64,000 nucleotides of DNA. Origin: a virus. The stretch lies in the IMG/VR virus record IMGVR_UViG_3300000228_000004, positions 1 to 64,000 of that record. One strand, written 5' to 3'. The notes beneath the pieces were generated by a model that saw only the letters and a program-made list of their open reading frames with translations, did not search any database and was not told the DNA's origin. The position numbers were made by a program, and so were the translations under genes. How positions within the stretch are numbered: the stretch's first letter is position 1; each line of letters opens with the position of its first letter. Of this stretch, positions 731 to 57,141 are shown in pieces.

Positions 731-747
731 GGGTGGTATAACCACCC
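731..747 (-). terminator. Hairpin after gene 754..1005, probable terminator
   Basis: GGGTGGT-ATA-ACCACCC inverted repeat just past the stop codon; U-tract is weak. Confidence 0.5.
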
Positions 748-753
748 ATATTA

Positions 754-1005: not shown

Positions 1006-1021
1006 AATTCTTCCTTTTTTA

Positions 1022-1030
1022 TTATTTAAG
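1022..1030 (-). promoter_or_regulatory. T4-like late promoter (CTTAAATAA)
   Basis: TAAATA core about 20 nt upstream of ATG 1005. Similar boxes near 2926, 3494, 4106, 24307, 25464 and 37114; T4 consensus is TATAAATA. Confidence 0.55.
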
Positions 1031-1062
1031 TCGGGAATTATGACAACCCATATTTTATGATG

Positions 1063-2907: not shown

Positions 2908-2925
2908 TGGATTCTTTCTTATAGT

Positions 2926-3291: not shown

Positions 3292-3293
3292 AA

Positions 3294-3479
3294 TTAATCT
3301 TCGTAAATATTACCATCAATGATGAGTGCTTTCTTTTGTTTTTCTTTATCTGTCGGACCGAAACCATTTCTGCTATACGGCGCAGTAGAAATCACGCCCA
3401 AGTCACCATAACCACCATCGGTATCTTCTTCTGTTGGTTTTTTCGTTTTTTCAACTTTTTCTATAATTTCTTTTAACAT
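3294..3479 (-). CDS. Small late protein, start re-called to MLKEIIE
   Basis: GGGAAG RBS and TAAATA box precede ATG 3479. Confidence 0.6.
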   Translation of the reverse strand: MLKEIIEKVEKTKKPTEEDTDGGYGDLGVISTAPYSRNGFGPTDKEKQKKALIIDGNIYED

Positions 3480-14270: not shown

Positions 14271-14304
14271 ATTATACCGTAAGTTACCTTAAAACAAGGT
14301 TAAA
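14271..14304 (-). promoter_or_regulatory. Conserved early promoter overlapping the RNA ligase stop codon
   Basis: TTTAACCTTGTTTTAAGGTAACTTACGGTATAAT. Confidence 0.75.
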
Positions 14305-16121: not shown

Positions 16122-16194
16122 TTCTCCATACCAGAGTTGAACTGACAACCTCTCCCTTTCAAGGGGAGTGCTCCACCAATTGAGCTAATGGAGA
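16122..16194 (-). tRNA. tRNA with anticodon UGA (nominally Ser) but a short variable loop; no encoded CCA
   Basis: TCTCCAT-TA-GCTC AATTGGTG GAGC-A-CTCCC CTTGAAA GGGAG-AGGTT-GTCAG TTCAACT CTGGT-ATGGAGA-A folds as a cloverleaf. Confidence 0.8.
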
Positions 16195-38383: not shown

Positions 38384-38582
38384 TCACTACAGTTCTTTTA
38401 TTTTTTATGGGCGTTATGTCGTTTTTACCCGAACCTCTACCCCTGTGAACCGCCTCTAATCTCACCACGCCATTATGGAAAGAAGTTGCTTTCCCTATCA
38501 TAACCTCGACATATCCACTTGCTCTGATAGAACTTCCATAAAGGAGACCTAAAACTAAATGGTTTCCATTGGCGTCTTTCAT
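38307..38582 (-). CDS. Hypothetical protein
   Basis: Coupled ORF. Confidence 0.55.
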   Translation of the reverse strand: MKDANGNHLVLGLLYGSSIRASGYVEVMIGKATSFHNGVVRLEAVHRGRGSGKNDITPIKNKRTVVNVHPNSLFRVVDEVNWSNALESDEI

Positions 38583-39616
38583 TTCATACCAGCTTCTTCG
38601 TTTAATTCACTCATCAAAAACTCTTTTGAAATCTTAGCAATGTACCCAAAAATTTCTTTAGGCTCTAACCCAGCTTCTGTGATAACATCGATTTCTTCTT
38701 TTAGGATATCTTTATTTACCGCTTTCAGGAAATCACCAGTCCTTTTGATATCACCTCGACCACCATTCAGTACATCGAAAGTTTCGTTGTACATTTGTGA
38801 TAGCCTATAAGCTGGCGTAACTTTTTGGGCAATGTTAATTTTCATTTGTTCTTTTTCATCATCAACTGGTTTAAGAGTTTTCACTTTTGATTTAGAGTGA
38901 GATTCACCTTTCACTTTAAATGTCTGGGCAGTATTTTTAAACCAACCTACCCACACCACCCCCTCACCGTGACCAGAAACACCAAACACTTTGCCGACTG
39001 GGCATTCTTTATCAACACTTTCAGTAATCGCAATGAGTTTATTATTGAAGAGCTCAGGCTTATTGAAGTCAATTTCCATTTCATAGGTTTCGAATTCATA
39101 TATGCTTCTAATATTTCTTTCTGAATCCAATATCAGTTCTAATGACGCTTCTGGGAATTCTACCCATTCATAATCTTCTTCAAGTTTATACTTAATAGAA
39201 AACATAAAAAAGTGTTTAGGTATCTCTGTTACAGCAACACCCTTTTGGATACCTTTCCCTGCCCATTCTCCGTAAATACAAACTTCTTCAACACCAAGAG
39301 CTTCTCTTAATTCCGCGAGTTTACCAGTGAAGTATTCTTTGTTAGTTTCTACAAAAAACGCAAACCCAGCATTGTCTTTTTCTACAGTAATGATGTTTTC
39401 TTTAGATTGTGCCCAAAGATCACCCCCGTTATAACAAATACTTGCATTAGTTCCGTGTAGCTTCACTGTACCAGTGAATTTAATTACTGGGAGGGGTTTC
39501 ATATTATCATATACGGGATTCTCGGCTTCATCTAAACTAACAAACCTTGCTTGATGAGATATGTTTCTTATTGTTTCCCTAAATTGAGAAATACTCGGCA
39601 TTTTAATTAATTTCAT
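38579..39616 (-). CDS. RNA ligase 2-family nucleotidyltransferase
   Basis: KLHGTNA, DNAGFA, IYGEWAG.GIQKGV, GEGVVW, FKVKGE.HS. Confidence 0.82.
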   Translation of the reverse strand: MKLIKMPSISQFRETIRNISHQARFVSLDEAENPVYDNMKPLPVIKFTGTVKLHGTNASICYNGGDLWAQSKENIITVEKDNAGFAFFVETNKEYFTGKLAELREALGVEEVCIYGEWAGKGIQKGVAVTEIPKHFFMFSIKYKLEEDYEWVEFPEASLELILDSERNIRSIYEFETYEMEIDFNKPELFNNKLIAITESVDKECPVGKVFGVSGHGEGVVWVGWFKNTAQTFKVKGESHSKSKVKTLKPVDDEKEQMKINIAQKVTPAYRLSQMYNETFDVLNGGRGDIKRTGDFLKAVNKDILKEEIDVITEAGLEPKEIFGYIAKISKEFLMSELNEEAGMK

Positions 39617-40659: not shown

Positions 40660-41214
40660 TTACGAAACTGATACTAAGTAATTTTCTATAAAAGAGCGTA
40701 TTTCATTTTCGCCATCAAAATTATTAGTGAATTCATGATCATATAGACCATCTTTTTCGATGTTTCTCACGAAATCATCGAAACCATTTTCACGGTGTAT
40801 TGGTGTTTTTGTTTTTATTAATACGAAAGTGAAACCATTTTCCTTACACCAATCATATTCGTTCTGTGTCCTTACATCAGAAATGACAATACTATCCACA
40901 TTTAAAAGTAATAGTTCTTCTTGTAACATTCTCACAAACAACCCGTCTTCAGAATTCCTCAGAGAATTTAAACTCAGCCAAATTTCCCTTGGAGTTTTAG
41001 AGATAAGTTCCCCTGTCTTCGGTACTACTATATTCAATGGTTTTTCTTTTTCTTCAGGTGGGTAGTCCTTTTTCATCCAAGGGTAGATCTTAACTGCTAA
41101 TTTTTTTAATTGGTCACTGAAACTAATTCTGTTAAAACCATATTTTGTTACCATGGTTTTTACTACATAGTCTTTCCCAACACCGCTCACCCCCAATATT
41201 GCTATCTTATTCAT
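40660..41214 (-). CDS. Deoxynucleoside monophosphate kinase
   Basis: GVSGVGKD, ISFSDQLKK, TPREI, ISDVR..NE. Confidence 0.85.
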   Translation of the reverse strand: MNKIAILGVSGVGKDYVVKTMVTKYGFNRISFSDQLKKLAVKIYPWMKKDYPPEEKEKPLNIVVPKTGELISKTPREIWLSLNSLRNSEDGLFVRMLQEELLLLNVDSIVISDVRTQNEYDWCKENGFTFVLIKTKTPIHRENGFDDFVRNIEKDGLYDHEFTNNFDGENEIRSFIENYLVSVS

Positions 41215-41749
41215 AATCTCGTACCGCCTTTAATATTTCTAAAATTTCACTCACTGCGTTTTCACCAATCTTAACTATATGGAATGGTTGATTATTTTTT
41301 ATTAACATATCTTTTATCCTTTCATCTAGCTCTTCTGACTCTGATAGAGTTTGTCTTCTTCCGTATGTTTGGTATGGGTGCTCTTTGGTATCTCTCTGTA
41401 AGAATATATTCAGGTGGTCATACGAATTCCAAATACCTAAAATAAGAGCTTCGAATTCTTTTTCTGGGAGATGTTTACTTTCTTGTAGGTAAACAGAACC
41501 CAGTAAAAATGGTCCATCATTAACTGTATAGTCAACTTGCTCTTCAAGTTTGAACCAATGGTGATGTTGTTTAGCCAATATCATCAATTGATCTTTTAAT
41601 TTATAGAAATCCTTACTGTATACAAGCCCTTTTGCGTATTCAGTAACGAACTCAACCTCGTACCCAAGCTTTTTCATTGAATGGAAAACCCCTGCGGCAG
41701 TCGTTGATTTTCCGGAAGACGGACCTCCGAATAGGTTGATATTCAACAT
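41207..41749 (-). CDS. P-loop NTPase/kinase (NadR/AAA_28-like)
   Basis: INLFGGPSSGKST, EYAK, DGP, GR.QT..E. Confidence 0.75.
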   Translation of the reverse strand: MLNINLFGGPSSGKSTTAAGVFHSMKKLGYEVEFVTEYAKGLVYSKDFYKLKDQLMILAKQHHHWFKLEEQVDYTVNDGPFLLGSVYLQESKHLPEKEFEALILGIWNSYDHLNIFLQRDTKEHPYQTYGRRQTLSESEELDERIKDMLIKNNQPFHIVKIGENAVSEILEILKAVRDYE

Positions 41750-41928
41750 TTACCATCCTCTAAAATTTCATAATTTAGTGTTATTTCGTTTCCTCGACAA
41801 ACGGGACAGGCGTAATATTCGTTTTCACCAAACGCGCCATACCCTTAATTTTACCATTTCCAGAACATTCAGTGCATAGTATTACGACACCATCATTTAG
41901 TAAATCTTCCAATTTCACTTTTTTATTT

Positions 41929-42735
41929 TCAATCATAGTACCACCCTTTTTTTACCAACATTTCTTTCGCCTCTTCAGTCGTTAATTCAATTGCTTCACC
42001 TTGCATAAATGGGGTATCTATTTTGATAAGAACTTCTTTCGAAAGTAGGCTACCTTTTTTGAAATACAGTGGTTTACTTTCGAAGCACCTGAACCCAATA
42101 ATTGTCCTTTTATTCGGGAGATCATTCGGAACCCCGTGTAAAAACTTCGTGTTATCAAAAATAATAGTATCACCAGGAGCTAAGTTTAGCTCAAATACTT
42201 CTCCAGCATGATTCATGAGACATAAACCTTTACCGCCATTTTCATTTTCAAGGACAACCACCATAACCAACCGTGGGATGAGCCCTTCCCTTATTTCAAT
42301 CTTATCTTTCCCCCATTCACCGTCAAACACTTCGGCATCAAAATGATATGGTATAGAATTACTATAATGGGATCCTTCTTTGTAATATTGGTAGTTGAAA
42401 AGAGACTTACTGTTTCCAGAAACAACTTCACCTATAAAACCGCCTAATATATCATTATATAATGAAAACAGCCCACCGAGAAGACCGTCTATTTTCAGAA
42501 ATGGTGCAGTATCTGGTTCACCCAAAGAAACCATTACTGCGCCACCGACCCTTCCTTCAGTTTCTTCCCTTTTTCTATATAATTTGCGCTCGACCAAATA
42601 ATCACTATACCCTATATCTATATTTGGTATAATATCATCAGTTAATTTTTTAGTATCCAACTCAGACAGAATGTCATAAATGACACAAAACCCATTCAAC
42701 TTCAGATCTGAAATATAATCTTCTATGTATTCCAT
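41929..42735 (-). CDS. 2OG-Fe(II) dioxygenase superfamily protein
   Basis: YHFD (HxD), GGKGL, PGD.IIFDN...LHGV, RTIIGFR. Confidence 0.75.
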   Translation of the reverse strand: MEYIEDYISDLKLNGFCVIYDILSELDTKKLTDDIIPNIDIGYSDYLVERKLYRKREETEGRVGGAVMVSLGEPDTAPFLKIDGLLGGLFSLYNDILGGFIGEVVSGNSKSLFNYQYYKEGSHYSNSIPYHFDAEVFDGEWGKDKIEIREGLIPRLVMVVVLENENGGKGLCLMNHAGEVFELNLAPGDTIIFDNTKFLHGVPNDLPNKRTIIGFRCFESKPLYFKKGSLLSKEVLIKIDTPFMQGEAIELTTEEAKEMLVKKGWYYD

Positions 42736-42950
42736 TAATTATCCCTGTATTCTGAGAATAATATTGTTATTTCTTCTTTTGACAATCTTTTTGGACCTGC
42801 CAATGAGAAATGATATACAAACTCATTCCCGAGAAAAGTGGTCATGCCGTATAAGTTATTCTCTACTATTTGGACTTCTAGTGGTATGTTTATTTCTTCT
42901 GGGGTGGAAATAAATACTTCATTTCCTATTGTTAATTCAAACGAAATCAT
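42735..42950 (-). CDS. Hypothetical protein
   Basis: Coupled between the TS-like and oxygenase genes. Confidence 0.5.
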   Translation of the reverse strand: MISFELTIGNEVFISTPEEINIPLEVQIVENNLYGMTTFLGNEFVYHFSLAGPKRLSKEEITILFSEYRDN

Positions 42951-44041
42951 CTTTCTACCCTTACAAACTCAAATTTTCTGAAAAATGAATTCTCTAAACT
43001 ATGGTACAATTCATCAGAACATTTGATTTTGACCGTGTCTGTGGAAAGTGAGAATTGTTCTTCATATTTTTTATGTAAAATATATGTAAGCACTAAATTG
43101 GAATATAAATATAAAAGATTATCTGTTGTTGGAACATTAAACCGCTCAAATAAATCATCCAAGCCCGTGTATTCTTCACCACTGAAATCAGTATCGGTCG
43201 TGATTATTGAGGATAAATGAGAAACCAACCCCTGAAAAAATTCATGAATTTTTTCAATTTCAGGAAATTCTATTTCATCATCTGCTAGTAATCCATTTTC
43301 TTGTGAAATTTTATTCGTGATAACATCATACCCCTGTTTCCCTGAAAAATCATAAAGGTGCATATTAGTCACATGGTGATTATAAACGCCTAAAGTAACT
43401 TCTGGGTCAATTTCAGATTTGATATATTGAAGAATCATTTCTTGTAAAAATGTCCATTCAAAAATATTTATACTACCTAGCCCCCAAACAATATCACCGC
43501 TCCTAGATTTGACATTCATATTCAATTTCTTATCAGGTGTAACGAAAAAATCTAATACCATGTTACACGGTCTGTCTTTTCCTTTTTCTATACCATCTTC
43601 TTGAAGTGCTGAAGTAGAGTCAATAGACGGGTCTGAAATAACCATCACGGCTCTTCTCGTGTAAATTCCTTCGTTCCTGAATTGCTGAAGGACGTCATTT
43701 ATCTGCTCATTACTGGAAATCCTTTCTGGATAACCCCCTCTCCACGAAATACCGTCATCAGAATAATCACTTGCTCTGGGCAGGAAAAAACTTAGGTACG
43801 GGTCTATTTTATTAGAACCAGCAAATACCCAAAATGTTTCTGCTATCGTAGCAAATATATTGTTTTTTCTACCAATGAGAGAAAGATGCCTTGCTTTAGG
43901 ATTTTCTAGAGTGATGAACGCATTATATACTGAAAGAATTCCACCATTCCTAGATTTGGTTCTATGCCCCTCGCTGATAAGTTTATCCAATGATTTGTAA
44001 ACAACTTCATTGATAGTTTTCCCTTTGATTTGGTTCAACAT
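42947..44041 (-). CDS. Thymidylate-synthase-fold dUMP hydroxymethylase (5-hmdUMP synthase)
   Basis: SRNG, N.FA..AET.W, TRRAV, PCN catalytic Cys, RSGD..WG...N (Asn, dUMP-type), LQE, H.Y; hypermodification gene context. Confidence 0.8.
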   Translation of the reverse strand: MLNQIKGKTINEVVYKSLDKLISEGHRTKSRNGGILSVYNAFITLENPKARHLSLIGRKNNIFATIAETFWVFAGSNKIDPYLSFFLPRASDYSDDGISWRGGYPERISSNEQINDVLQQFRNEGIYTRRAVMVISDPSIDSTSALQEDGIEKGKDRPCNMVLDFFVTPDKKLNMNVKSRSGDIVWGLGSINIFEWTFLQEMILQYIKSEIDPEVTLGVYNHHVTNMHLYDFSGKQGYDVITNKISQENGLLADDEIEFPEIEKIHEFFQGLVSHLSSIITTDTDFSGEEYTGLDDLFERFNVPTTDNLLYLYSNLVLTYILHKKYEEQFSLSTDTVKIKCSDELYHSLENSFFRKFEFVRVER

Positions 44042-44232
44042 TCGTGTAACTCCTTTTTTGAATTTATATGGGCGGATGGTATTTTAATAAAATATTGGGT
44101 ATACCCGTATTTTTCAATGCACTCACCGCAAATTTTGATATCTCTATTGAACTCTATTGAAATAAAACCTGAAAAATGAAATATTCCATTTTCTTCTTTT
44201 GTAGAACCACACACATCACATTTAATGCACAA
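44035..44232 (-). CDS. Small Zn-finger-like protein
   Basis: CDVC...CGEC. Confidence 0.5.
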   Translation of the reverse strand: MCIKCDVCGSTKEENGIFHFSGFISIEFNRDIKICGECIEKYGYTQYFIKIPSAHINSKKELHEC

Positions 44233-44277
44233 ACCGACCCCTTGTTTAAAATATATTGACTTATCGGGATTGAATTA

Positions 44278-44907
44278 TCAATCCCTTTTTCTTGGTTTGG
44301 TTGATAACCTTGTTTTACCGAGCTTCGTTTTCTTGTTACTGAAAATTAGGTTAGTTAATCTATCCGAATATTTCTTATACTGAAAACAATCTGGGATGTA
44401 AATAACCTCAAGTTTATCTGGGAAATGTATGGCACTTATTGATACTGTCGTATTTTCACGAATTCTATCTTCGCCATCAGGAAAAACTTTCATGAGACTT
44501 TCTTCAAGAACAGGTAGTATGTGCTTGATATCAAATGCTACAGCATAAAGTAAAACGCCTTCTCTTGAGTAACCAGCTGAAATATATAACCCATTTTCAT
44601 TCTTATACTTCTGGAAAGATTTCCAAGTCAAATTATTGAAAATTCCTCTCCCCGAAACTGGTTTATTCTCCCCAATAGTTTCATTTTTTACTTCTAGGAA
44701 CAAGTTGCCTCTCTTACCATCCCAACCATGTTTTTCTGATATGTGGTGTCCGTGTATAAGATCTACTGTTATTCTTTCCCTCACAGAGTCTCCGCCACCA
44801 GTCATAAGGTTTTCACAAGAAAACCTCGAAAATGCGTTCGCTTCTTCTAAGTTGTCAAAATCAGATAATACCCCAGTCTTAGCATAATTCATTATATTAT
44901 GGTACAA
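44278..44907 (-). CDS. Putative PD-(D/E)XK endonuclease
   Basis: E...HGWDG...LEVK motif. Confidence 0.5.
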   Translation of the reverse strand: MYHNIMNYAKTGVLSDFDNLEEANAFSRFSCENLMTGGGDSVRERITVDLIHGHHISEKHGWDGKRGNLFLEVKNETIGENKPVSGRGIFNNLTWKSFQKYKNENGLYISAGYSREGVLLYAVAFDIKHILPVLEESLMKVFPDGEDRIRENTTVSISAIHFPDKLEVIYIPDCFQYKKYSDRLTNLIFSNKKTKLGKTRLSTKPRKRD

Positions 44908-44910
44908 AAG

Positions 44911-45090
44911 TCACCCTTTAGTTGAAATTCTAGAGGTAGACCATTCTTTGGTTGAGCGACGAGAAAGATAGTAACCCATCCCGAATGCTGACATACGGTA
45001 TTCTTTCAGCATTTGTAACGCTTCTTTTCTTGTTTCAAATTGGTCAACTGTTTCAACCACCCCATTTGTTTTAGTGTTGATGTATAGCAT
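44911..45090 (-). CDS. 59-aa early protein MLYINTKTNGVVETVDQFETRKEA...
   Basis: Open frame, AAGGTG RBS, promoter directly upstream. Confidence 0.6.
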   Translation of the reverse strand: MLYINTKTNGVVETVDQFETRKEALQMLKEYRMSAFGMGYYLSRRSTKEWSTSRISTKG

Positions 45091-45121
45091 TTTTCACCTT
45101 TCTTATCATATAATATCTTAT

Positions 45122-45155
45122 ATTATACCGTAATTTGGTTTAAAATAAACTTAAC
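45122..45155 (-). promoter_or_regulatory. Variant early promoter
   Basis: TTAAGTTTATTTTAAACCAAATTACGGTATAAT. Confidence 0.6.
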
Positions 45156-45733
45156 CGATCACCATTTATTTGAGCCGCAGTTGATTGATAATAGTGAGTA
45201 GTACCAGTTCCGTTATCACTAGAAACCCTCACATATTCATTGAAATTTTTAGCGTTCATAATCCATTTGAATTTTACCAAATAATCACCACTGGGGGTAT
45301 TTTCATAGTACCCAACCACGATATAATCAACAAGTCTATTGTATTTTAAAAAAGTGGTTAAATTCGCCCTTGTCAGTTGGTGTTCATTTGGGTTATTTGC
45401 CCCAGAAATATTGAAATTGAACCATCTATCGTTTTTATTGGAAGGCTTCACTTCTATAAAAGAACCGTCGACCTCAACATCATAAGCAAAAGAGAGAGGA
45501 TTCAACGGGTCATGCTTTTGGGTATTAAGTTTACCGCCAAGAAGTGATGCTAAAGCAACTTCTAGTATTACACCACTTTCGCAGTTTTTCATCAGAACTT
45601 CATCCGTTCTACCGTGTGTTTGACCATTTTCCTTTATCTCTTGAAACAAATTAAGTGATAATTCTGAAATATCTTCTTTAGTGACCACGATTGGTTTTCG
45701 AAGCTTAATTAAAATATTGTTGGTTAAAACCAT
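45140..45733 (-). CDS. Putative PD-(D/E)XK nuclease
   Basis: G...E.A...YDV.V....IEVK motif. Confidence 0.5.
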   Translation of the reverse strand: MVLTNNILIKLRKPIVVTKEDISELSLNLFQEIKENGQTHGRTDEVLMKNCESGVILEVALASLLGGKLNTQKHDPLNPLSFAYDVEVDGSFIEVKPSNKNDRWFNFNISGANNPNEHQLTRANLTTFLKYNRLVDYIVVGYYENTPSGDYLVKFKWIMNAKNFNEYVRVSSDNGTGTTHYYQSTAAQINGDRLSLF

Positions 45734-46410
45734 TCTGTATCCTTTGATGGTGCTGTTTCTTTAATTGAATTTACAATTTCCCAATTTTCGTTAAAATACA
45801 TTTTTACTAACGCGTCTCGACTTTCCTTGAAATCTATATGTTTTACTAGATTATTTTCAGAAGCACCCATATTATTTTTGTAATATATTAACAGGGTTTT
45901 AAAAAGTTCATTGTCCGACCACCCAGATGAATTTTCAGCCCAATCAAGACCTCTGGTTTTTCCAGTTCTCTCGTTCGTTCTTTGCAAAAACTCAGTTATA
46001 TCATCATAATAAGAAGCAATCAAGTGTACTTCATCACACCCATTGGCTTCCCAACTCGGAATATCGCCTCGCTTAGAACGGTTGTTAAAATAACCCTCCA
46101 TAAAAATAGTGGTTATTTCTGGGTATTGTTTTGCTAACGCTGGTATCTTTTCTAACCGTTGTTCCCAATTTGAAAACATTGCTGTATCAAGACTGACCCA
46201 TTGTGTACCACCTTTGGCAAATCTACCCAATACGAACCAACCATTTTCGAATAGGAATCCTATATCTTCTTGCTTAGGTTCTTTACCCTTTCTTTCAATT
46301 TTACCGCGTATCACTGAATACTCGAATTTTGAAATCAAGTAGTTCACTAAGAAATATGTTCTTGTTGATTTCCCGGAACCATTTGACCCCATATAATTGA
46401 TTAGTCTCAC
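45724..46410 (-). CDS. P-loop kinase, candidate 5-hmU-DNA kinase
   Basis: GSNGSGKST, VLGR.......SLDT, FMEG, R..ERTG; lies in the hypermodification cluster. Confidence 0.72.
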   Translation of the reverse strand: MRLINYMGSNGSGKSTRTYFLVNYLISKFEYSVIRGKIERKGKEPKQEDIGFLFENGWFVLGRFAKGGTQWVSLDTAMFSNWEQRLEKIPALAKQYPEITTIFMEGYFNNRSKRGDIPSWEANGCDEVHLIASYYDDITEFLQRTNERTGKTRGLDWAENSSGWSDNELFKTLLIYYKNNMGASENNLVKHIDFKESRDALVKMYFNENWEIVNSIKETAPSKDTEWF

Positions 46411-46443
46411 TATTTATCCTTTACTTTCAAATATTATACCATA

Positions 46444-48234
46444 TCATTCTTTTGTTTGACTTAAACCAATTTGTGAAAATTCACCTTTCACGAACCTAGA
46501 AAAAACTTCTTTTATCGTTCCAGATGTATCTAATTCTAATAATTGAACCACATTTCCACCGAGATCGTTGTGTTCTTGATAAACTTTCTTCGCAGTTGAA
46601 AGTCTCTCGTATTTTTTTTCTACTGCTTTAAGTTGGTTCATTTCTTCATCAGATTTACCAGTCCTGTTTTTAATTCTTACCAGTGCTTCTTCGTAGGAAG
46701 TACTTAAAAAAAGTACCACTGGCTTCCTTAGTGTCATATTCTTTAGTGTATCAAAATATGCAGCTATTGTATCTGATGGTATTGAACCCTCTAGATACAC
46801 GCTAAAATCACTGAACTCTTTCCTGTTTAATACTTCTATGGCATACATGATTTCTTTCTTCTTGAGCGTGTCACATCCCCCAAAATTAGATTCCACTCCA
46901 TAGTTACCCAAAGAGATGAAGTTATATTTCGGAAAAACCGTGAAAATGGTTTTCTTAAAATAATTTGAATAAATTTTATACGAAAGAGAATCAGTTGCAA
47001 GCATTTGCTTGGGGATAGTTGATTTTCCGGCACCGTTCCCCCCCTTGACATACATGAAAGTTGGTTCACTTTTTTTAATTATTTCAAAAAAACTTTCATC
47101 AAATTTTTCGACTGGTGTATCAAACCAGTCATCATATAAATTAGGCGCGTAAACTTCTTTCTTAACGATGTCGAGTTCGATGTCCCCAACGAAGTTGAAT
47201 GTTTCTTCGTACTCGTAAATTTCTACTTCAGTGGGCATCTTTCTATTCAAATTTTCGGCGGAAGTTTTAAGGTCTGGTACTGACCCAACTACCCAAAACA
47301 GGGTTTTATCGTTTATCAGTTCTGGGTGATTTTTTAATAGGTATTCGTAAACTTTCGCTTCATATCTATAATGAAATGTTATGTCATCTATTTGAATACC
47401 CTTAATGGTTTTAGAATACGGTTGTTTCGTGTCGTGCCAAATGAATTCAAACATCGATGTGTCAGCACCCATTAAAGAAAGCCTTTCAAACATATAGTCA
47501 CGCTTATCGACCCCCACATTTATGAGGTGTATTCTTTTCAATGCCTTTGGCGTATCTTTATCATCACTTAACCCCAATAATATAGAAGTTGCTGAATTCG
47601 CTGAGCCGAATGGTATGATTAGATCAGTGATAAAGGTTGGTATATTCTTTACCTGATGAGCGCCAACTTTATGGAAATCAGTTACCATCTTAGCTGAATT
47701 CACAGAAAGCCTATGATCCAGAGTGATATCTCTTTCAATGGTAAATGATTTCGGGAACTTTTCCATAACTTCCCCGACCCTCTTTTGTATATTCACATTA
47801 AACCCAGAGCCACTTGATATTTCATACTTAGTACCAAACATAGTCGCGAATAAAGGAAGTTGGTGTTTATTTATAGCGTCGAAACTTGTCCCACCAGCCA
47901 CTTGAATACACCGAAGCCCGTAATGCTCTGCCATTGCGGCAGCCATAATGGTCTGTGGTGATGAGTTGACATTCGTTGCGTGTATTACTGTATCAGCACC
48001 CGTTGGTCTATTTTCAAATAAGTGAAGGAGTTGTCTACACTTAGACCCGTTCGCGGTGTTTATCCCGAAAAGAGAGAATTTATCTTCTCTCTTATAGTAC
48101 ATACCATCTGATTTCTGTTCCACTGGGGTTAGTTCCCACATATAATCTTTCCACCGTTTACCTTCCGGAAGAGGAAAGGGTACAACGGAATCTCGTAAAT
48201 CTTCATTCAGTGTAATTCTTTCTGTCATAACCAC
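46444..48234 (-). CDS. Fold-type II PLP enzyme fused to a second 5-hmU-DNA-kinase-like domain
   Basis: LTPVE...KRED...NGSKCRQ, SPQ, IIPFGSANS, YEAK, LFWVVG; C-terminal KGGNGAGKST, LGNY....FGGCDT, LEG. Confidence 0.8.
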   Translation of the reverse strand: MVMTERITLNEDLRDSVVPFPLPEGKRWKDYMWELTPVEQKSDGMYYKREDKFSLFGINTANGSKCRQLLHLFENRPTGADTVIHATNVNSSPQTIMAAAMAEHYGLRCIQVAGGTSFDAINKHQLPLFATMFGTKYEISSGSGFNVNIQKRVGEVMEKFPKSFTIERDITLDHRLSVNSAKMVTDFHKVGAHQVKNIPTFITDLIIPFGSANSATSILLGLSDDKDTPKALKRIHLINVGVDKRDYMFERLSLMGADTSMFEFIWHDTKQPYSKTIKGIQIDDITFHYRYEAKVYEYLLKNHPELINDKTLFWVVGSVPDLKTSAENLNRKMPTEVEIYEYEETFNFVGDIELDIVKKEVYAPNLYDDWFDTPVEKFDESFFEIIKKSEPTFMYVKGGNGAGKSTIPKQMLATDSLSYKIYSNYFKKTIFTVFPKYNFISLGNYGVESNFGGCDTLKKKEIMYAIEVLNRKEFSDFSVYLEGSIPSDTIAAYFDTLKNMTLRKPVVLFLSTSYEEALVRIKNRTGKSDEEMNQLKAVEKKYERLSTAKKVYQEHNDLGGNVVQLLELDTSGTIKEVFSRFVKGEFSQIGLSQTKE

Positions 48235-49460
48235 TCACTTATTTGTTTTTCTATGGTTGGGGTGATTTTATTATTGGTTTTCTTCCCATACCATTCTTTT
48301 TCTTTTTCTTCGTGATTAATGAAGAAATTATTTTTAAAAACTGGGTTATAATTTTCCATCATAATAACTTCCCCTGTTTTCTTATACCAATTCTGTTTGA
48401 CCTTAACCAATCCTGGGTCATTCGGGTTATCTTCCATCCTAAGTTCAGAAGGAAGATATTTTCTTCTTGCTTCCCAAAAATCTTTGAAATCTATATCAGA
48501 CCCATCAATTTCTTTCCAATCCCTTGTTTCTGCTTTTTTTATTCTATCATGGAACATATCATTATAAACATTAGGATATCTTCTATTTTCCCTGTGCCAA
48601 CTCTTATAGCAACAAAGCGTGGACTCAAGGGTGAAGTAGTTCACATCTTCAAAGAACGGTTCTTGTGAAAATCTTTCCTTGGCATCTGATAATAGTACCG
48701 CGCCCTCTTTTTCTAGCCAAATCATAACTTCTTTGTTATGCCCGTTGACTATTTCTGTTGGTAAATCTTGGTTATCTTTTCTAACATCAAGATCATCCCT
48801 ACCACTCACTACACAAAGACCGTTCCGGTGTGATTTTGAACCAGATTTATCATAAATGAAGAGACTACCGCAATCTATGTTTAATCCCATAATTTTAAGA
48901 TACTCAAGGTATGAAAATGTTGAAAGCCTTCCATACATAAAAAAATCGTTAAAAACGGTATCCCAAACTTTTTCAAAATTTCCATAAACATCACCAGTAT
49001 CACAAAGGTCTGAAAAATACCCTTCTTGCGTTTTACCACCCAATAATTCTAGGTAATTTTGGTACATTTCAATGAAGTGACCCTTTTGGTATCTTCTGTC
49101 GATATCATAGTCGAGGTTTTTCCAATATTCTCTATGCCATTTTTCCATGTCTTCTATAGAAGAAGACCTTAAAGAAGGGAAATGTTTAAATAACACCCAG
49201 GAAGTGAGTGGGTTTTGTGTTGCTCCGTTTATAAACGCGAACCACAATCTTGTCTCAAAATCCCAATCATGTTTCTTAGCCAAGAAAGGCATCACATAAT
49301 ATACTGCCCCTGGATGAGATTTATACTTTAAATGGAACCCATAAAAATTAAGGAAAACTTCTCTTCTATATTCAGGCAACCGAAAATCAACGCCCTCTGC
49401 TAATTCCCTTTCTTCGACCCCATTTATGTGACAAAATCTACCCAATACCATTGATATCAC
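48225..49460 (-). CDS. Amino acid:DNA transferase (aGPT-Pplase clade 2-like)
   Basis: WFAFING.TQNP, D.DRRYQKG, YGRLSTFSYLEYL, SHRNGL, TLESTLC.YKS, RRYP.VY.D. Confidence 0.78.
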   Translation of the reverse strand: MISMVLGRFCHINGVEERELAEGVDFRLPEYRREVFLNFYGFHLKYKSHPGAVYYVMPFLAKKHDWDFETRLWFAFINGATQNPLTSWVLFKHFPSLRSSSIEDMEKWHREYWKNLDYDIDRRYQKGHFIEMYQNYLELLGGKTQEGYFSDLCDTGDVYGNFEKVWDTVFNDFFMYGRLSTFSYLEYLKIMGLNIDCGSLFIYDKSGSKSHRNGLCVVSGRDDLDVRKDNQDLPTEIVNGHNKEVMIWLEKEGAVLLSDAKERFSQEPFFEDVNYFTLESTLCCYKSWHRENRRYPNVYNDMFHDRIKKAETRDWKEIDGSDIDFKDFWEARRKYLPSELRMEDNPNDPGLVKVKQNWYKKTGEVIMMENYNPVFKNNFFINHEEKEKEWYGKKTNNKITPTIEKQISEWL

Positions 49461-49983
49461 CTTTTATGAATTCATAAATTTCCACCCATTCAACATAAGG
49501 GAATTCGTCACTGGGCGAGTTAAGGAAACTTTTAATTTGAAAAACTTTAGAATGAGGGGAAACATCCCTACAATATTTCTTATAGTCATCAACGAAATAA
49601 TCACATCTCACGAATTTCTTATCAGAAGTGGACACAAACCCCTTAGAGTATGGGAAATTTCTTCTTATGAAATGTCGTTTCGATTCTTCATGCTCTGGGA
49701 TACAACTTGATACGAATATTATACCAATACCGAGTTCGTGGATTTTTTGTAAGTATATTTTAGCATGTTCAAATGCTTCTAATTTATCATATAACTTAGG
49801 GTCTCTCCAAAATTTCATTGGGTCATTATGATTTTTCATCAAGGTTTCTAGGTCATTATTCTCAGATGAAAGTGACCCTAAATCATCCCCAGTCAAATCT
49901 TTGTACCAATTTACCCAAGGGGTAACTGAGTCAACCACTGTTAAATCAACATCGACCGCGATTATTTTATTCATTTCAGACAT
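49438..49983 (-). CDS. HAD 5'(3')-deoxyribonucleotidase
   Basis: IAVDVDLTVVD, FVSS, K..., DYFVDD. Confidence 0.82.
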   Translation of the reverse strand: MSEMNKIIAVDVDLTVVDSVTPWVNWYKDLTGDDLGSLSSENNDLETLMKNHNDPMKFWRDPKLYDKLEAFEHAKIYLQKIHELGIGIIFVSSCIPEHEESKRHFIRRNFPYSKGFVSTSDKKFVRCDYFVDDYKKYCRDVSPHSKVFQIKSFLNSPSDEFPYVEWVEIYEFIKGDINGIG

Positions 49984-50106
49984 TTTTCACCTTTTTGTTC
50001 ATTTTACTAAAGTAACCTTTCAGAAACCTTAAATCTTTTTAATAAACCACGCTTAGTATGTTTCATAGATTTAAGGTCAGTATAAGTTTCAGTTCCGACT
50101 TTAATT

Positions 50107-50748
50107 TTATTTGAATAATTTGGTGTTATCTTCGTTACCATTTTCATCAAATTTTGCATATGCATCAGCTGATTCAGTATAACCGCCGTCAACTCTTTCG
50201 TGGTTCAGTTTATTCTTCCCCATATATAATTGATACATATATTCAGGTGTCATATTCGCGTACCACCCAAGTGAATTTATCAGGTACACGAACGCGGTCA
50301 ATGATTCTTCCCTTTGGTCTAAAAGAGAAGATAATGAAAATGAATTGATATCTAACATCAATCCACTAGATAAATTTTCCCCATTTTCATCAAATTCCGC
50401 TTTAGAGAACTCCTCGTGGCAAGAAATATAATCACCTAACAATTGTTCTATATTAGACCCGTAATTCATAATCAATACACTGATCGCAAAGTGGATAATA
50501 TCAACTGCTTCTACTTGCATGTTATTAAAGTCATTCTCTAGGAAAATTTTCCACCACTTCCAACCAGTTCCTGTATCACCAGTCCTAGGGGAACTTTCCA
50601 ATAGTTCCCCTAACTCAGCCATCATTGCTGAAATAAAGTGTGATTTTGGGATAATCTCAGCCCAATCTTCCCCTGAATACTTCTCATTTAATAATACCTG
50701 TGCGCTCAAAATTTCACTAAATTCATTTACTTTCATTATGTTAAACAT
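50107..50748 (-). CDS. dut: Dimeric (all-alpha) dUTPase
   Basis: Q..LN, AELGELLES, WKWWK, VEAVDIIHF, Y..KN.LN.ER...GY. Confidence 0.88.
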   Translation of the reverse strand: MFNIMKVNEFSEILSAQVLLNEKYSGEDWAEIIPKSHFISAMMAELGELLESSPRTGDTGTGWKWWKIFLENDFNNMQVEAVDIIHFAISVLIMNYGSNIEQLLGDYISCHEEFSKAEFDENGENLSSGLMLDINSFSLSSLLDQREESLTAFVYLINSLGWYANMTPEYMYQLYMGKNKLNHERVDGGYTESADAYAKFDENGNEDNTKLFK

Positions 50749-50759
50749 TATTTTTCCTT

Positions 50760-51189
50760 TTATTTATGATTTGAAGTACTCAGTACTTCACCGTCCTTAT
50801 CAACCCATTTTCTCAGTTTGAAATCCAGTATATACATAGTTTTATCTGAATTTTCTTTGGCATCAATCGTGTGTTTTGTGCCCTTAGATTCCCCATCCCA
50901 GATAACCAAGAACATACCCGAATTATCCCAGATGGTTTTGTTTCTTATAAAACCAGCACTTTCCATATTTTTCCCAATCAGCTGGGTAAATTTCAGTGGG
51001 AATATCATTTACTTCAGTATAATATTCAGCCATAGAATCTATCCCTCTTGCGCCACCTGATACTATAGTGTCAAATTGTGTTTTTAAACGCATAGAGTCT
51101 AAAATTTTTACCAAAAGGTCAAAATCTTCAAACCCACGGGAACCAATGACCGCTAATCTTATCACGGGGGGGAGAACCACTTTTTTCAA
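50760..51189 (-). pseudogene. Frameshifted SLOG-family (YspA/DUF2493-like) gene
   Basis: AVIGSR, VSGGARGIDS, ADWEKYGK then, in another frame, SAGFIRN...WDGESKGT; break near 50960. Confidence 0.75.
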
Positions 51190-51206
51190 TCACTGTCTCA
51201 TCCTTA

Positions 51207-52388
51207 TCAATGCGTTTTCAACCACTCATCGGTTTGTTTTATTTCAGTATCTGAATCATTTGGATTTCGTTTATACCTATTTCTTGGTCTTCCAGTTTTC
51301 TGTTTCACAGAGACTATTTTTTGTAATTCACAGAAACTGTTTTCACACATCATAACATTTAATTTTCGATCTTCCTCTGGTAAATGGTCAAAAAGTTCAC
51401 TATAATCAATGTGAAGTCCGCGTTTTTCCCATTCAGTCTCTATATTATCCCTGACCCAGAATAATGCTTCTTCGTGGGTCATACCGTCCCTGTCTTCCAT
51501 TAAAAGGTCTATCCCTCTATCACATCCTGGCCCAGACACTACGAATTCATTTTCACTGAACTTGAATTCTGGTATATATGTTAAGTCAACAAATACTTGG
51601 TACGCCAAAAACCCAGCCAATCCTGGGATTTCTCTCAAAATATTGAATACTTCCTCTTGAGTATTCGCCCCTTGAACTCGAGTGGATATATCCGTGTTTT
51701 TAACCCATTGTATCATGTGTATCATCCTAGTTGGCATATTTTTTTCTACACCAACTATTTCATACCCTTCATTTTCTTTAATATACCCCTTTGCTTCTTT
51801 CCAGGTCATTTCTTCTGTGTCAATATGACCTTCTTTTCTTACCTCAACCACCATACCCGAATTCGTGCATTCGTACTCTAATGTTTTAGGGAAAGCCCAA
51901 CTTGCTTTGAGCCCACCAGTGTTAAATGCTGGTGTGAAAAATGCATATTTCGGATTTTCTTTAGCATATTCGATAAATATTTCACGGAACGCGTCTATGT
52001 CTAAATTGTCAAAATCTTCTATGTAACCACCAAATAATTCTGATGTACTAGACTTGTTATATGTTCTGAAGAAGATAGAATTGAGGATCTTTACTTCTAG
52101 TGTTAGATTCGGGTTTGTGCTAATATTCTTAATCAACCATTTAGACTCTCTATCGAGTTCACGCCTTACATTAGTGAATCTATAATTCTTGAACACTTCA
52201 TCGTCTGTCCATTCTTGTTGTGGTAATTTTTCAATTTCTTTTCTTTTGTGTATATTGTGTCTTTCAGACATGAACAAATTATGATATCTTAGCACCTCTT
52301 CATTTAAAATCGGTTTCGCGTTTTTTATCTTTTCGATATCAACACCACAATATCTAATATCGGCTTCCTTTGTTTTCATTAAAACCAT
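51207..52388 (-). CDS. aGPT-Pplase clade 1-like DNA base hypermodification enzyme (HhH glycosylase-like fold)
   Basis: ER..I..RK...WTDD.V...YRFTNVRRELDR, FR.YN, G..GFLAYQV..DL, GPG..RG, EN.FCE..K. Confidence 0.82.
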   Translation of the reverse strand: MVLMKTKEADIRYCGVDIEKIKNAKPILNEEVLRYHNLFMSERHNIHKRKEIEKLPQQEWTDDEVFKNYRFTNVRRELDRESKWLIKNISTNPNLTLEVKILNSIFFRTYNKSSTSELFGGYIEDFDNLDIDAFREIFIEYAKENPKYAFFTPAFNTGGLKASWAFPKTLEYECTNSGMVVEVRKEGHIDTEEMTWKEAKGYIKENEGYEIVGVEKNMPTRMIHMIQWVKNTDISTRVQGANTQEEVFNILREIPGLAGFLAYQVFVDLTYIPEFKFSENEFVVSGPGCDRGIDLLMEDRDGMTHEEALFWVRDNIETEWEKRGLHIDYSELFDHLPEEDRKLNVMMCENSFCELQKIVSVKQKTGRPRNRYKRNPNDSDTEIKQTDEWLKTH

Positions 52389-53548
52389 TCCTCAAGTTTA
52401 AAATTTTGCTTCATATCATAACCAACTGCTTCTAACATAAGGTTAAGTGGTGATATGAAATAATCTTCCCACATTTTACCCCTATCAACATATTTTTCAA
52501 GCCCAGAGTCTGTTATAAAGTCAGAATCTAGAAACCCGATTATATCATCACCTAAAATGTTGGGTTTCTTTAAAATACAATATTTTATTTTATCACTGTC
52601 TGTTATTTTAGGGTATTTGGATAACCCAGTTCTTTCTAAAAAAATATTGTAATTCATTGCCGCCCTTACATTCATTGGCGCAGTTAAAATTTTTCCATTT
52701 TTCTTAGTGGTGAATTTACCTATACCCCCCTTATAATCCAAAGACCCGATACCAGAAACCCTGCATATGTCACCCAATGGTGCTTTGTAGAATTTCTCTT
52801 CTATCTCAGATATAGAAGCAATCGTTTCTTTTGCATCGTTATCTAGAATTACATTCACCATATCTTTGAGATATTTCCTACAAAAGGGCGGAGTAGAAGA
52901 TCGTACTATCTCCAACCCAGTGACCGCCAATTTAGGGTCATCGACAAGTATAGACCCTTCGTCCCAAACGGCACGCAAAGCATATTTTTTCTTTGCAACA
53001 AACATCCCTTTATCGGCAATTTTTTCAAGTTTTGCCCCGATGGGCTTGGCACTAAATGCGTTGAAATTGTCTGAGAAAGAATCTATGTATTCTTGGACCC
53101 ATACATCGAGGTATTTATGATCAAAATTAACAAGTTTATCAAGTATTTCGTGATTATTAGCGGTGTCGAATTTTTTTACTAATTCATTAAGAGTAAAATA
53201 CACAGAGTCGGTGTCACCATAAACTACAAAGTCAATATTGGTATTAAGAACACTTCGTAACTTCCCATTTACATAATTCGCCAATCCTTGTATAAATATC
53301 CTACCGTTCCCAGTGATACTTGCAGCAACATCTCGATTGAATAGTAAAAAGTGTATATTTGCTAGAGCACCATATAATGAGTTCATCGAAATCTTTAGAG
53401 CCATCTGATATACATCGAAATAAGCAATTCTAGTGTCTATATATTTCATATCTGCCGTTAAACCACTAACATCCAAATCGTTGATTTTATCAATCGTCAT
53501 TGAACCGTCTTCTATACCATCGTAAATTTCTTCTATTGTCATGTTCAC
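52379..53548 (-). CDS. gp43: Family B DNA polymerase, C-terminal piece (fingers helix, palm, thumb)
   Basis: QMALKISMNSLYG, YGDTDS, KKKYA, GLEIVRSSTP. Confidence 0.92.
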   Translation of the reverse strand: MNMTIEEIYDGIEDGSMTIDKINDLDVSGLTADMKYIDTRIAYFDVYQMALKISMNSLYGALANIHFLLFNRDVAASITGNGRIFIQGLANYVNGKLRSVLNTNIDFVVYGDTDSVYFTLNELVKKFDTANNHEILDKLVNFDHKYLDVWVQEYIDSFSDNFNAFSAKPIGAKLEKIADKGMFVAKKKYALRAVWDEGSILVDDPKLAVTGLEIVRSSTPPFCRKYLKDMVNVILDNDAKETIASISEIEEKFYKAPLGDICRVSGIGSLDYKGGIGKFTTKKNGKILTAPMNVRAAMNYNIFLERTGLSKYPKITDSDKIKYCILKKPNILGDDIIGFLDSDFITDSGLEKYVDRGKMWEDYFISPLNLMLEAVGYDMKQNFKLEEWF

Positions 53549-54903: not shown

Positions 54904-55359
54904 TTAAAGTTCTTCCTCTATCGCGGTTTCTTCTATCTTACATATAAACAGTGCACCCTCTTCTTTACCTTCCTCTCCTGTATAAAAACCACTTGTGATA
55001 AAATAATTACAAGTTTCACTGTCGTATATAACCCACTTCCACTTAGTCACCGTTTTCGGTTTTATGCGATAAGAATACTCAGCATATAGATGCTGAGTGA
55101 ACATATCCAAATCAGTGAGTGTAGTTATTTCCCACTCTCCGTGCAGTGTATTGAGCCATTCAATTTGCGTTTTGTCATCTACGAATTGCTTTCGTAGTGA
55201 TGCATATTCATCGTCTAGTATGTAGATTAAATCCTTATCCCAGCTTGGTAATGTTGTTACATCCCAAAGTTCATCAGTTGGCATCTTACACCATACTATT
55301 GTTCCAACTGGACTATTTGCGAATTTAATCATCTCTTCTTTATGTACTCTGCCCATCAT
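54904..55359 (-). CDS. Tandem paralog family member 3
   Basis: H..E...A..P.GT.VW, YI.DD...RKQF.D, YRIKPKTVTKWKWVI, ICKIEET. Confidence 0.7.
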   Translation of the reverse strand: MMGRVHKEEMIKFANSPVGTIVWCKMPTDELWDVTTLPSWDKDLIYILDDEYASLRKQFVDDKTQIEWLNTLHGEWEITTLTDLDMFTQHLYAEYSYRIKPKTVTKWKWVIYDSETCNYFITSGFYTGEEGKEEGALFICKIEETAIEEEL

Positions 55360-55805
55360 TCAACTTCCTTTCTTGTTTCTTCTATCTTACATATAAAAAA
55401 TGCGTTACCATTACCTTCCTCTCCTGTATAAAAACCACTTGTGATAAAATAATTACGAGTTTCACTGTCGTATATAACCCACTTCCACTTAGTCACCGTT
55501 TTTGGTTTTATGCGGTAACAGTCTGATGTATGATTCCACAAGAACCCATCAAATTTTAACAGATTTTCAAAATTGTTTGGAACCCATTTACTTGAACACT
55601 CATCATATATCTCAATCTGTGATGCATTATCTATGAATTGCTTTCGTATTTCTGAGTGCTCGTCATCTACGATGTAGTGGAAATTATTATACCATCCTGG
55701 TTCTACTACCTTAACCCACTCTGTGTGCCTTTTTTCCCTATACCAAACATTTGTACCATCAGGTCTATCCGCCCATCTATTAATTTCTCTTCTATGGTGT
55801 TTCAT
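55356..55805 (-). CDS. Tandem paralog family member 2
   Basis: Same motifs as its neighbours. Confidence 0.7.
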   Translation of the reverse strand: MKHHRREINRWADRPDGTNVWYREKRHTEWVKVVEPGWYNNFHYIVDDEHSEIRKQFIDNASQIEIYDECSSKWVPNNFENLLKFDGFLWNHTSDCYRIKPKTVTKWKWVIYDSETRNYFITSGFYTGEEGNGNAFFICKIEETRKEVE

Positions 55806-56266
55806 ACTTCAAACTCTCTTTCAGTTTCTTCGATTTTACAAACAAATATATGGAATTTACTTTTTGAACCATCTACATAGTAACCATTTGATATTCTATG
55901 TTCATTCGTTAAGATATCTTTTATAACCCACTTCCACATAGTTACCGTTTTCGGTTTTACCCGATACCTATGCCCCATATCAAGAAATTTCGTTAGGCTA
56001 TCTAGCTCCCGTCTATCAGTTGCTACCCACTTATCATCGATATAGTGGTGCCACTCGACCCTTGTCGGGTCATCAAGGAATTGCTTTCGTATTTTAGCGT
56101 GTTTGTCATCTACTATGTATAAGAGATCTGTATTCCAACTCGGGTGGGCTGTTAGTATCCACTCCAGTTCATTTTGTCTTTTAAACCATACACCAGTTGC
56201 TTCTGGTGCGTCAGCCCAGCGTATTATTTCACTTCTATGCTTTTTCATCTTTTGAATATCCCCCAT
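55802..56266 (-). CDS. Tandem paralog family member 1
   Basis: Same motifs as its neighbours. Confidence 0.7.
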   Translation of the reverse strand: MGDIQKMKKHRSEIIRWADAPEATGVWFKRQNELEWILTAHPSWNTDLLYIVDDKHAKIRKQFLDDPTRVEWHHYIDDKWVATDRRELDSLTKFLDMGHRYRVKPKTVTMWKWVIKDILTNEHRISNGYYVDGSKSKFHIFVCKIEETEREFEV

Positions 56267-57106: not shown

Positions 57107-57141
57107 ATTATACCGCAAGTTAGCTTAAAGTAAGGTTAAAC
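57107..57141 (-). promoter_or_regulatory. Conserved early promoter containing the stop codon of the middle PolB piece
   Basis: GTTTAACCTTACTTTAAGCTAACTTGCGGTATAAT. Confidence 0.8.

Follow-up and report, generated by a model that had tools for sequence, protein, structure and literature searches.

The window analysed here (64,000 nucleotides, the first 64 kb of the 110.5-kb linear IMG/VR virus record IMGVR_UViG_3300000228_000004, hereafter G000) contains, at positions 40660-52388, a compact block of genes that very likely encodes a complete thymidine hypermodification pathway of the type known from Salmonella phage ViI (Kuttervirus). In such a pathway, 5-hydroxymethyldeoxyuridine (5-hmdU) is phosphorylated by kinases, receives an amino acid from an amino acid:DNA transferase (ADDT) and is finished by a pyridoxal phosphate (PLP) decarboxylase. 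The ViI proteins gp67, gp160, gp226, gp243 and gp247 suffice for the formation of 5-NeOmdU on 5-hmdU DNA (PMC5889632), PMC8989533 describes what each of them does, and all five have homologues in the block. The type of pathway is a known one, found here in an uncultivated T4-type myovirus; what is new is the consolidated, cassette-like architecture, the pairing of a 2-oxoglutarate (2OG) oxygenase with an AAA_28 kinase, and C-terminal tails common to the polymerase and several other enzymes. The assignment would extend ViI-type thymidine hypermodification to a T4-type myovirus lineage from biofilm, soil and cave metagenomes, with the whole pathway in one block that could be cloned, and it flags two testable features, namely the conserved oxygenase and kinase pair and the polymerase-like tail on DNA-acting enzymes.

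Predicted enzymes acting on 5-hmdU in DNA

Four genes of the block are assigned to the steps on DNA:

51207..52388, minus strand: clade-1 aGPT-Pplase / HMUDK_hel, homologue of ViI gp160 (PF18723, 1e-60)
48225..49460, minus strand: ADDT (formerly aGPT-Pplase clade 2), 411 amino acids, homologous to ViI gp247 (phrog_3271, 2e-77; ends SEWL)
46444..48234, minus strand: PLP enzyme (residues ~1-345) fused to an HMUD1-type kinase (residues ~375-596), 596 amino acids (PF18748, 6.5e-25, 88 bits)
45724..46410, minus strand: HMUD2-type 5-hmdU DNA kinase, gp243-like (PF18747, 24.3 bits; ends TEWF)

The ADDT shares 29% identity (E 3e-30) with ViI gp247, a biochemically proven serine:DNA transferase, and the cysteine aligns between the two proteins. 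C283 is invariant in 19 homologues, and a cysteine nucleophile has been demonstrated for PaMx11 gp46. Higher identity (42%) is found with mycobacteriophage and Glutamicibacter phage enzymes that lack characterisation. The nearest relatives from cultured phages (42%) lie in a cassette of ParB, thymidine hydroxylase, ADDT and kinase genes at the left genome end of Mycobacterium phage Prince (positions 1-3465, locus L102); this mycobacteriophage cassette is a T-dioxygenase route to 5-hmU.

The PLP domain is 33% identical to ViI gp226 (E 2e-53), a proven decarboxylase, and its residue K65, invariant among homologues, is aligned to K92, the proposed Schiff-base lysine of gp226 (PMC8989533). The fused kinase domain is 33% identical to ViI gp67, with a Walker A motif starting at residue 398. 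An identical PLP-kinase fusion protein is encoded on four contigs, one of them 143.7 kb long, and a second fused homologue shares 52% identity; the fusion is particular to the phage of the window and that homologue. A locus search with the single fusion sequence returned nothing and an alignment-based profile was required. The PLP profile retrieved 79 loci, in nearly all of which PLP and ADDT genes adjoin; the sister loci (L numbers below) come from searches with the PLP and 2OG profiles.

The HMUD2 kinase is 24% identical to ViI gp243 (E 3e-5), keeps the Walker A motif and is itself kept in L005, L006, L014, L103 and L104. The clade-1 protein is 40% identical to ViI gp160 (E 3e-75) and weakly matches M6 gp55. 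Its family, HMUDK_hel (PF18723), corresponds to the clade-1 aGPT-Pplase of Lee 2018 (PMC5889632); in the literature consulted the clade-1 protein is without demonstrated transferase activity.

Predicted supply of 5-hmdU

Four further genes are assigned to the nucleotide pool:

50107..50748, minus strand: dimeric all-alpha dUTPase, dUTPase_2 (PF08761, 1e-17; phrog_173)
49438..49983, minus strand: HAD-type 5'(3')-deoxyribonucleotidase, NT5C (PF06941, 7e-8)
42947..44041, minus strand: thymidylate synthase (TS)-fold enzyme, predicted dUMP 5-hydroxymethylase (PF00303, 4e-10)
40660..41214, minus strand: dNMP kinase, homologue of ViI dnk (orf65) (phrog_139, 7e-28; weak dNMP-kinase matches in Pfam)

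The TS-like enzyme is 37% identical to the ViI protein labelled 'thyA', and the phages that encode its relatives are ViI-like, M6-like and SPO1-like. Its top match in the PDB is the CMP hydroxymethylase MilA (1.6e-12), canonical TSs following at about 1e-2, and it scores far under the cut-offs of all NCBIfam TS equivalogs. The catalytic cysteine (Cys159) is kept, and Asn192 occupies the position of TS N177/N229, where MilA has Asp; by this alignment Asn192 is the uracil-specifying residue and the target would be uracil/thymine. On the basis of orthology, the enzyme is predicted to be a dUMP 5-hydroxymethylase rather than a methylase. No second TS or ThyX was found besides 42947..44041. In L104 (7659-9731), the gene for the TS-like hydroxymethylase is interrupted by an intein that contains an HNH endonuclease (Intein_splicing 6e-15, HNH_3 5e-13).

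The dUTPase_2 protein, which matches ViI by family only, probably makes dUMP and may also hydrolyse dTTP, as there is a precedent for a dTTPase/dUTPase in phage 15599 (PMC13458397). The NT5C nucleotidase is 36% identical to ViI orf239, which sits between the ViI polymerase and gp243, and is probably a dTMP/dUMP phosphatase. The dNMP kinase is 30% identical to ViI dnk, whose gene adjoins that of the ViI hydroxymethylase, and is probably a 5-hmdUMP kinase.

Proposed pathway and product

Family functions are the basis for the steps predicted before replication, and homology to the ViI enzymes for those after it. The dimeric dUTPase would supply dUMP and may destroy dTTP, while the HAD nucleotidase would remove dTMP; the TS-fold enzyme would convert dUMP to 5-hydroxymethyl-dUMP, to be phosphorylated by the dNMP kinase and perhaps by the AAA_28 kinase too; and the split T4-type polymerase would incorporate 5-hmdU in place of T. 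By analogy with T4, a DenB-like and a PD-(D/E)XK nuclease encoded in the block may degrade unmodified DNA. In the DNA, the HMUD2 kinase and the PLP-fused kinase domain would then convert 5-hmdU to its phosphorylated form, 5-PmdU, the ADDT cysteine would displace the phosphate and attach an amino acid, and the PLP domain would decarboxylate the attached amino acid to leave a side chain with a primary amine.

The initial annotation had named both ViI- and M6-type phages as models for such a pathway. Every ViI component has a homologue here, whereas the M6 proteins, i.e. the radical S-adenosylmethionine (radical-SAM) isomerase gp53, the PLP enzyme gp52 and the ADDT gp51, gave no tblastn match in G000 (71% complete by estimate) or in the complete sister genome G001, and no match to PF04055 (radical-SAM) was found in the contig. 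The TS-like gene of G001, detected by tblastn, escaped the Pfam-family genome search; the negatives of that search are weak, and were repeated with tblastn where possible. Since no radical-SAM isomerase was found, the route would be of the ViI type and not of the M6 type. A PLP decarboxylase of this kind needs a free alpha-amine (Lee 2021, PMC8989533); with no isomerase, attachment therefore probably runs through the side chain of the amino acid, the arrangement known for serine in ViI. We regard 5-(2-aminoethoxy)methyl-dU (5-NeOmdU-like) or a close analogue as the most likely product, predicted to occupy a fraction of the T positions. The 5-NeOmdU nucleoside has a mass of 301 Da.

This bears on the earlier proposal that T is replaced by 5-hmdU and partly hypermodified. 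Hypermodification based on 5-hmdU stands, but the replacement needs qualifying, since ViI keeps thymidine: its nucleosides comprise the four canonical ones, including thymidine, and a fifth that replaces about 40% of the thymidines, no 5-hmdU peak being described in the available parts of PMC5889632.

Several points weigh against the assignment. The ADDT has no match to PF18724 even at E 10, while relatives about 50% identical to it score 72-89 bits, and neither as a single sequence nor as a profile did it reach any solved structure, PaMx11 gp46 included. The PLP domain has no direct Pfam match, although distant relatives match PF00291, and the HMUD2 kinase falls just under the 25-bit cut-off of PF18747. 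Whether the TS-like enzyme hydroxymethylates or methylates cannot be read from its sequence alone, and the product itself is deduced from sequence. As identity between the ADDT and the serine transferase gp247 is no more than 29% and two pocket residues can switch donor choice in the family (PMC13458397), the donor may not be serine. Moreover, G000 is an estimated 71% complete, and further tailoring genes could lie elsewhere.

The point about the donor leads to an alternative that we consider rather unlikely, in which the logic is the same and the product different: in place of serine, the ADDT would use threonine, cysteine, homoserine, a diamino acid or a polyamine, and the PLP enzyme would decarboxylate or remodel it to give a base not yet described. 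The low identity to gp247 and the closer relationship to the mycobacteriophage and Glutamicibacter phage enzymes fit this alternative, as do the known donors of the family, which include Gly, Ser, putrescine and 1,3-diaminopropane with specificity set by few residues (PMC13458397), and the presence of GATase, GNAT and amidoligase genes at the corresponding place in sister phages. Against it, a gp226-type PLP partner with no isomerase is the ViI solution for O-linked serine, and a PLP decarboxylase would be superfluous with a plain diamine as donor. The 5-NeOmdU-like product remains the preferred one.

The 2OG oxygenase and AAA_28 kinase pair

Two adjoining genes have no counterpart among the ViI components:

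41929..42735, minus strand: Fe(II)/2OG dioxygenase of a family outside Pfam (invariant residues and model)
41207..41749, minus strand: P-loop kinase, AAA_28, thymidylate-kinase-like by PHROG (PF13521, 1.6e-12; phrog_2107, 1e-16)

The oxygenase label proposed earlier was confirmed. Indeed, residues H131, D133, H200, R210 and R216 (HxD...H and two Arg) are invariant in 46 homologues, and the AlphaFold2 model has the dioxygenase (double-stranded beta-helix) fold with a mean confidence (pLDDT) of 95.6. The nearest folds are prolyl hydroxylases (Z 14), in a flat list without a specific family; no Pfam match, TET/JBP included, was found, and no TET/JBP chain is present among the 50 best fold matches.

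The oxygenase gene always adjoins the AAA_28 kinase gene, in the constant part of the block. The pair (29% and 31% identity) is also present in an unrelated phage contig with 63% GC (L117:3758-8741, IMGVR_UViG_3300049617_000342), in which no TS-like or ADDT gene lies within 8 kb of it; this suggests a module of its own.

A role as thymine or thymidylate hydroxylase is an attractive guess. In that case the oxygenase would supply or top up 5-hmU by hydroxylating thymine in DNA, or dTMP/thymidine from host DNA with the AAA_28 kinase feeding the pool. Its catalytic residues are intact, it belongs to the constant supply part whichever tailoring cassette is present, it is without the polymerase-like tail of the DNA-acting enzymes, it is paired with the kinase even in the high-GC contig, and a link of phage T-dioxygenases with ADDT and kinase genes is on record (PMC13229309). 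Nevertheless, such a role is improbable: there is no sequence match to TET/JBP, thymine-7-hydroxylase and AlkB come lower in the fold list than the prolyl hydroxylases, a dUMP hydroxymethylase is already present, and the pair may serve another purpose given the lack of neighbouring TS-like and ADDT genes in the high-GC phage.

Organisation of the block and its sister loci

The block spans 11.7 kb and comprises 16 open reading frames (ORFs), with exactly the bounds given in the initial annotation and all on the minus strand, in agreement with the co-orientation it had described. The gene families that it had named were borne out by a hidden Markov model check against Pfam and PHROG, complemented by the ViI homology of the ADDT and of the PLP half of the fusion. 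It had placed the cluster directly after polB, which holds with the correction that polB is split, the cluster following its C-terminal half; the latter overlaps the clade-1 Pplase gene by 10 nucleotides. It had left off the DenB-like nuclease, the probable PD-(D/E)XK nuclease and three small ORFs, the last being:

50760..51008, minus strand: small ORF, 82 amino acids (no family match; 44-48% identical copies in L005 and L103)
44035..44232, minus strand: Cys-rich ORF, 65 amino acids (no family match and no homologue in sister loci)
42735..42950, minus strand: small ORF, 71 amino acids (orf71), between the TS-like and 2OG genes (35-37% identical copies in L103 and L104)

The Cys-rich ORF is possibly not a real gene. 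The cluster had no megablast match among GenBank phages, and promoter-like and terminator-like sites are no commoner than in shuffled sequence.

In the sister phages, the genes for dUTPase_2, NT5C, the TS-like enzyme, orf71, the 2OG oxygenase, the AAA_28 kinase and the dNMP kinase are constant, and the genes between NT5C and the TS-like enzyme form a variable slot, occupied as follows:

Window, L005, L006 and L014: ADDT (411 amino acids), PLP enzyme and HMUD2
L103 (2899-8411): GATase, a different ADDT and a GNAT-HMUD2 fusion
L104 (2825-7594): GATase, ADDT, HMUD2 and amidoligase
L107 (71-2217): ADDT and HMUD1 kinase

The other cassettes seen across L103, L104, L107 and L108 (6258-8565) include GATase_6, GNAT fused to HMUD2, Amidoligase_2 and proteins of 366 and 385 amino acids. 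Modular recombination of tailoring genes has been proposed by Lee 2021 (PMC8989533), and the swapping in the sister slots is this recombination, at one locus of one lineage. From the gene content of the slots, different hypermodified bases are predicted in close relatives. A tailoring cassette that is exchanged within one lineage while the 5-hmdU supply stays fixed would be a natural test bed for new DNA bases.

Synteny of the whole block extends to three sister contigs, with 40-80% identity; the block is therefore under selection. It is very improbable that the phage merely replaces T with 5-hmdU, as SPO1 does, or has an ordinary metabolism with a true TS, the kinase, ADDT and PLP proteins being inactive or otherwise used: the TS-fold enzyme is labelled 'thymidylate synthase' in most phage records and its product cannot be read from sequence, but it lies far under the TS equivalog cut-offs, the catalytic residues of the ADDT, PLP domain and kinases are conserved across many homologues, and the kinase/ADDT/PLP genes share in the synteny of the sister phages.

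No HMUD1 kinase was found in the complete sister genome G001, where HMUD2 is the only kinase; two kinases are therefore not required. This weakens, without refuting, the idea put forward in the initial annotation that two kinase/transferase sets cover different sequence contexts.

C-terminal tails shared with the polymerase

Several proteins end in a tail motif, [DE]W[FLIV], with [DE][DE]W[FLIV] as the lineage-wide form. In the window, the polymerase C-terminal half ends in EEWF, the ADDT in SEWL and the HMUD2 kinase in TEWF. In this lineage the motif closes the polymerase C-terminal half; it also closes the ADDTs of the window and of five of the six sister loci (the exception is that of L108) and the HMUD2 kinases of the window and of all sister loci but one (that of L014 stops at DEW), and it is mostly at or near the end of the clade-1 (gp160-like) proteins and of the stand-alone PLP enzymes. 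A 5'-3' exonuclease and a protein of 82 amino acids carry it too (all tail sites taken together: window 45724-53548 and 27068-28123, G000 68060-68308), and it is present on no pool enzyme, nor on the 2OG oxygenase. In the whole record, six of the 286 ORFs end in W[FLVIM]. The ViI polymerase, gp247, gp243 and gp160 (L099, L101) have another common tail, (S/V)-N/S-L-L/M-x-x-L/M (VNLL/VNLM/VSLL) followed by basic residues, which the ViI proteins gp67 and gp226 and the ViI pool enzymes lack.

Two lineages with two motifs on the same protein set suggest that the tails could be docking peptides for a replisome component. We tentatively propose, as an idea of less than even standing, that post-replicative hypermodification is physically coupled to the replisome, the tail serving, in a form particular to each lineage, to dock the enzymes onto the clamp or another part; if so, docking would give the kinase and the transferase access to nascent DNA. 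Searches with PF02916, PF09116 and ViI gp45 did not turn up a gp45 clamp, and an ORF of 185 amino acids at the gp45 position (G000 67323-67880) is a clamp candidate by synteny only.

Split polymerase and nucleases

The polymerase half that adjoins the block and the two nucleases within it are:

52379..53548, minus strand: C-terminal half of a family-B (T4 gp43-type) DNA polymerase (PF00136, 8e-20; ends EEWF)
45140..45733, minus strand: DenB-like nuclease, T4 endonuclease IV family (phrog_1360, 5e-14)
44278..44907, minus strand: probable PD-(D/E)XK nuclease, 209 amino acids (orf209) (invariant motif, low-confidence model)

PolB is encoded in two pieces, the N-terminal one at 57136-58401 (phrog_262) and the C-terminal one at 52379-53548. 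L005, L006 and L014 share this split, and in every sister phage the two halves each have conserved ends of their own. The insert between them is 3.6 kb long in the window, with five small ORFs, and 1.0-1.6 kb long in sister phages; three of its ORFs (54904-55359, 55356-55805 and 55802-56266) are tandem paralogues with similar ends (FICKIEET). UvsX-like similarity is likewise spread across two adjoining ORFs (296 and 185 amino acids, G000 64363-65902), which may be another split gene.

By its sequence, the product of 45140..45733 is assigned to the T4 DenB (endonuclease IV) family, and its gene is kept in L005, L014 and L103. In orf209, D63...E72-V-K74 is invariant in five homologues; the model (pLDDT 65) has PvuII as its top match in the PDB (Z 7.4 over 95 aligned residues), with several other restriction enzymes among the next-ranked matches.

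Phage backbone, habitat and host

The GC content of G000 is about 34% and nearly all its ORFs are on the minus strand. It encodes a T4-type replication arm (topoisomerase II subunits, helicases, a gp41-type helicase and a gp43-type polymerase), the clamp loader (gp44), UvsX and gp32, as well as a gp46/47-like nuclease, ribonucleotide reductase, ligase, GroEL and NAMPT. The complete sister genome G001 (155 kb, with terminal repeats) encodes a tail sheath and is collinear with G000, with protein identities of 35-78%. With T4-type replication genes in G000 and a tail sheath in the complete sister, the phage is a T4-type myovirus; its nearest polymerase relatives are Vibrio phages and cyanophages.

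Besides GroEL and NAMPT, the phage encodes a Ro60/TROVE-like RNA-binding protein, two RNA-ligase-family proteins and a tRNA-Ser(TGA); the sites of these features, given as one list, are 80947-82554 and 78324-79820 in G000, and 18951-20399, 14300-15439, 38579-39616 and 16122-16194 in the window. Two large Hef-like homing endonucleases (phrog_3339) are encoded at 1063-2907 and 34110-35903 of the window.

Metagenome runs of biofilm, soil and cave samples, produced by at least three studies, contain the phage DNA, and no RNA dataset is among the sequencing runs that carry it. The initial annotation had considered a Campylobacterota host probable, which is not established, the signals being mobile or generic. 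The Hef-like endonucleases are about 40% identical to proteins of Campylobacter CP220-type phages, and similarly close to those of E. coli jumbo phages, the similarity being shared with Vibrio phages as well; the dUTPase of the window scores 52 bits with the epsilon-type dUTPase model, which has a cut-off of 300 bits. A DNA search of 401 Campylobacterota genomes returned short, chance-level matches only (E 1e-4 to 5e-6). The sole protein returned by the GroEL scan, a Sulfurimonas GroEL encoded on a bacterial contig, shares 50% identity with the phage GroEL and is uninformative for the host. A biofilm, soil and cave habitat is compatible with a Campylobacterota host and proves nothing.

Comparison with known systems

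ViI is the closest system. Homologues of all five of its hypermodification proteins, together with the dUMP hydroxymethylase, dnk and the HAD protein, are encoded here; both phages have two kinase types, both Pplase clades, a gp226-type PLP enzyme with its lysine and no radical-SAM enzyme. In both, the HAD gene lies beside the polymerase gene, the second kinase and the ADDT are encoded downstream of the polymerase gene, and several DNA-acting enzymes carry the C-terminal motif of the polymerase. However, identities are only 24-40%, the genes form a single 11.7-kb island here and lie at four places in ViI, the gp67-type kinase is joined here to the PLP enzyme in one protein, the polymerase is split, and the 2OG oxygenase, the AAA_28 kinase and two nucleases are extra. 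The backbone, judged by polymerase similarity, is not Ackermannviridae-like.

Metavirome clusters described by Lee 2021 (Fig. 2, sequences 14-16, 5-HMUDK-PLP fusion; PMC8989533) show the same fusion idea near a dUMP hydroxymethylase gene, on IMG/VR-type contigs; a constant and variable island within one lineage and a 2OG/AAA_28 pair are not described in the available parts of that study. The Pseudomonas phages M6 (5-NedU) and PaMx11 (5-NmdU/acetyl) follow the same logic of 5-hmdU, 5-PmdU and ADDT; the window showed neither an FAD lyase nor an acetyltransferase.

Phage PhiW-14 (putrescinyl-T) and Acinetobacter phage 15599 (dapT) have diamine:DNA transferases of the same family as the ADDT of the window, and in 15599 a dimeric-type dTTPase/dUTPase reshapes the nucleotide pool. 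In these two phages, however, the donors are free polyamines and no PLP decarboxylase is needed.

Finally, the hydroxymethyl-C system of T4 (gp42, dCTPase, DenA/DenB) resembles the block in having a TS-fold hydroxymethylase, a base-excluding NTPase, a dNMP kinase, a DenB-family nuclease and a T4-type replication module; it differs in that the predicted target here is uracil/thymine and not cytosine, and in that the proposed tailoring proceeds by phospho-activated transfer of an amino acid and not by glucosylation.

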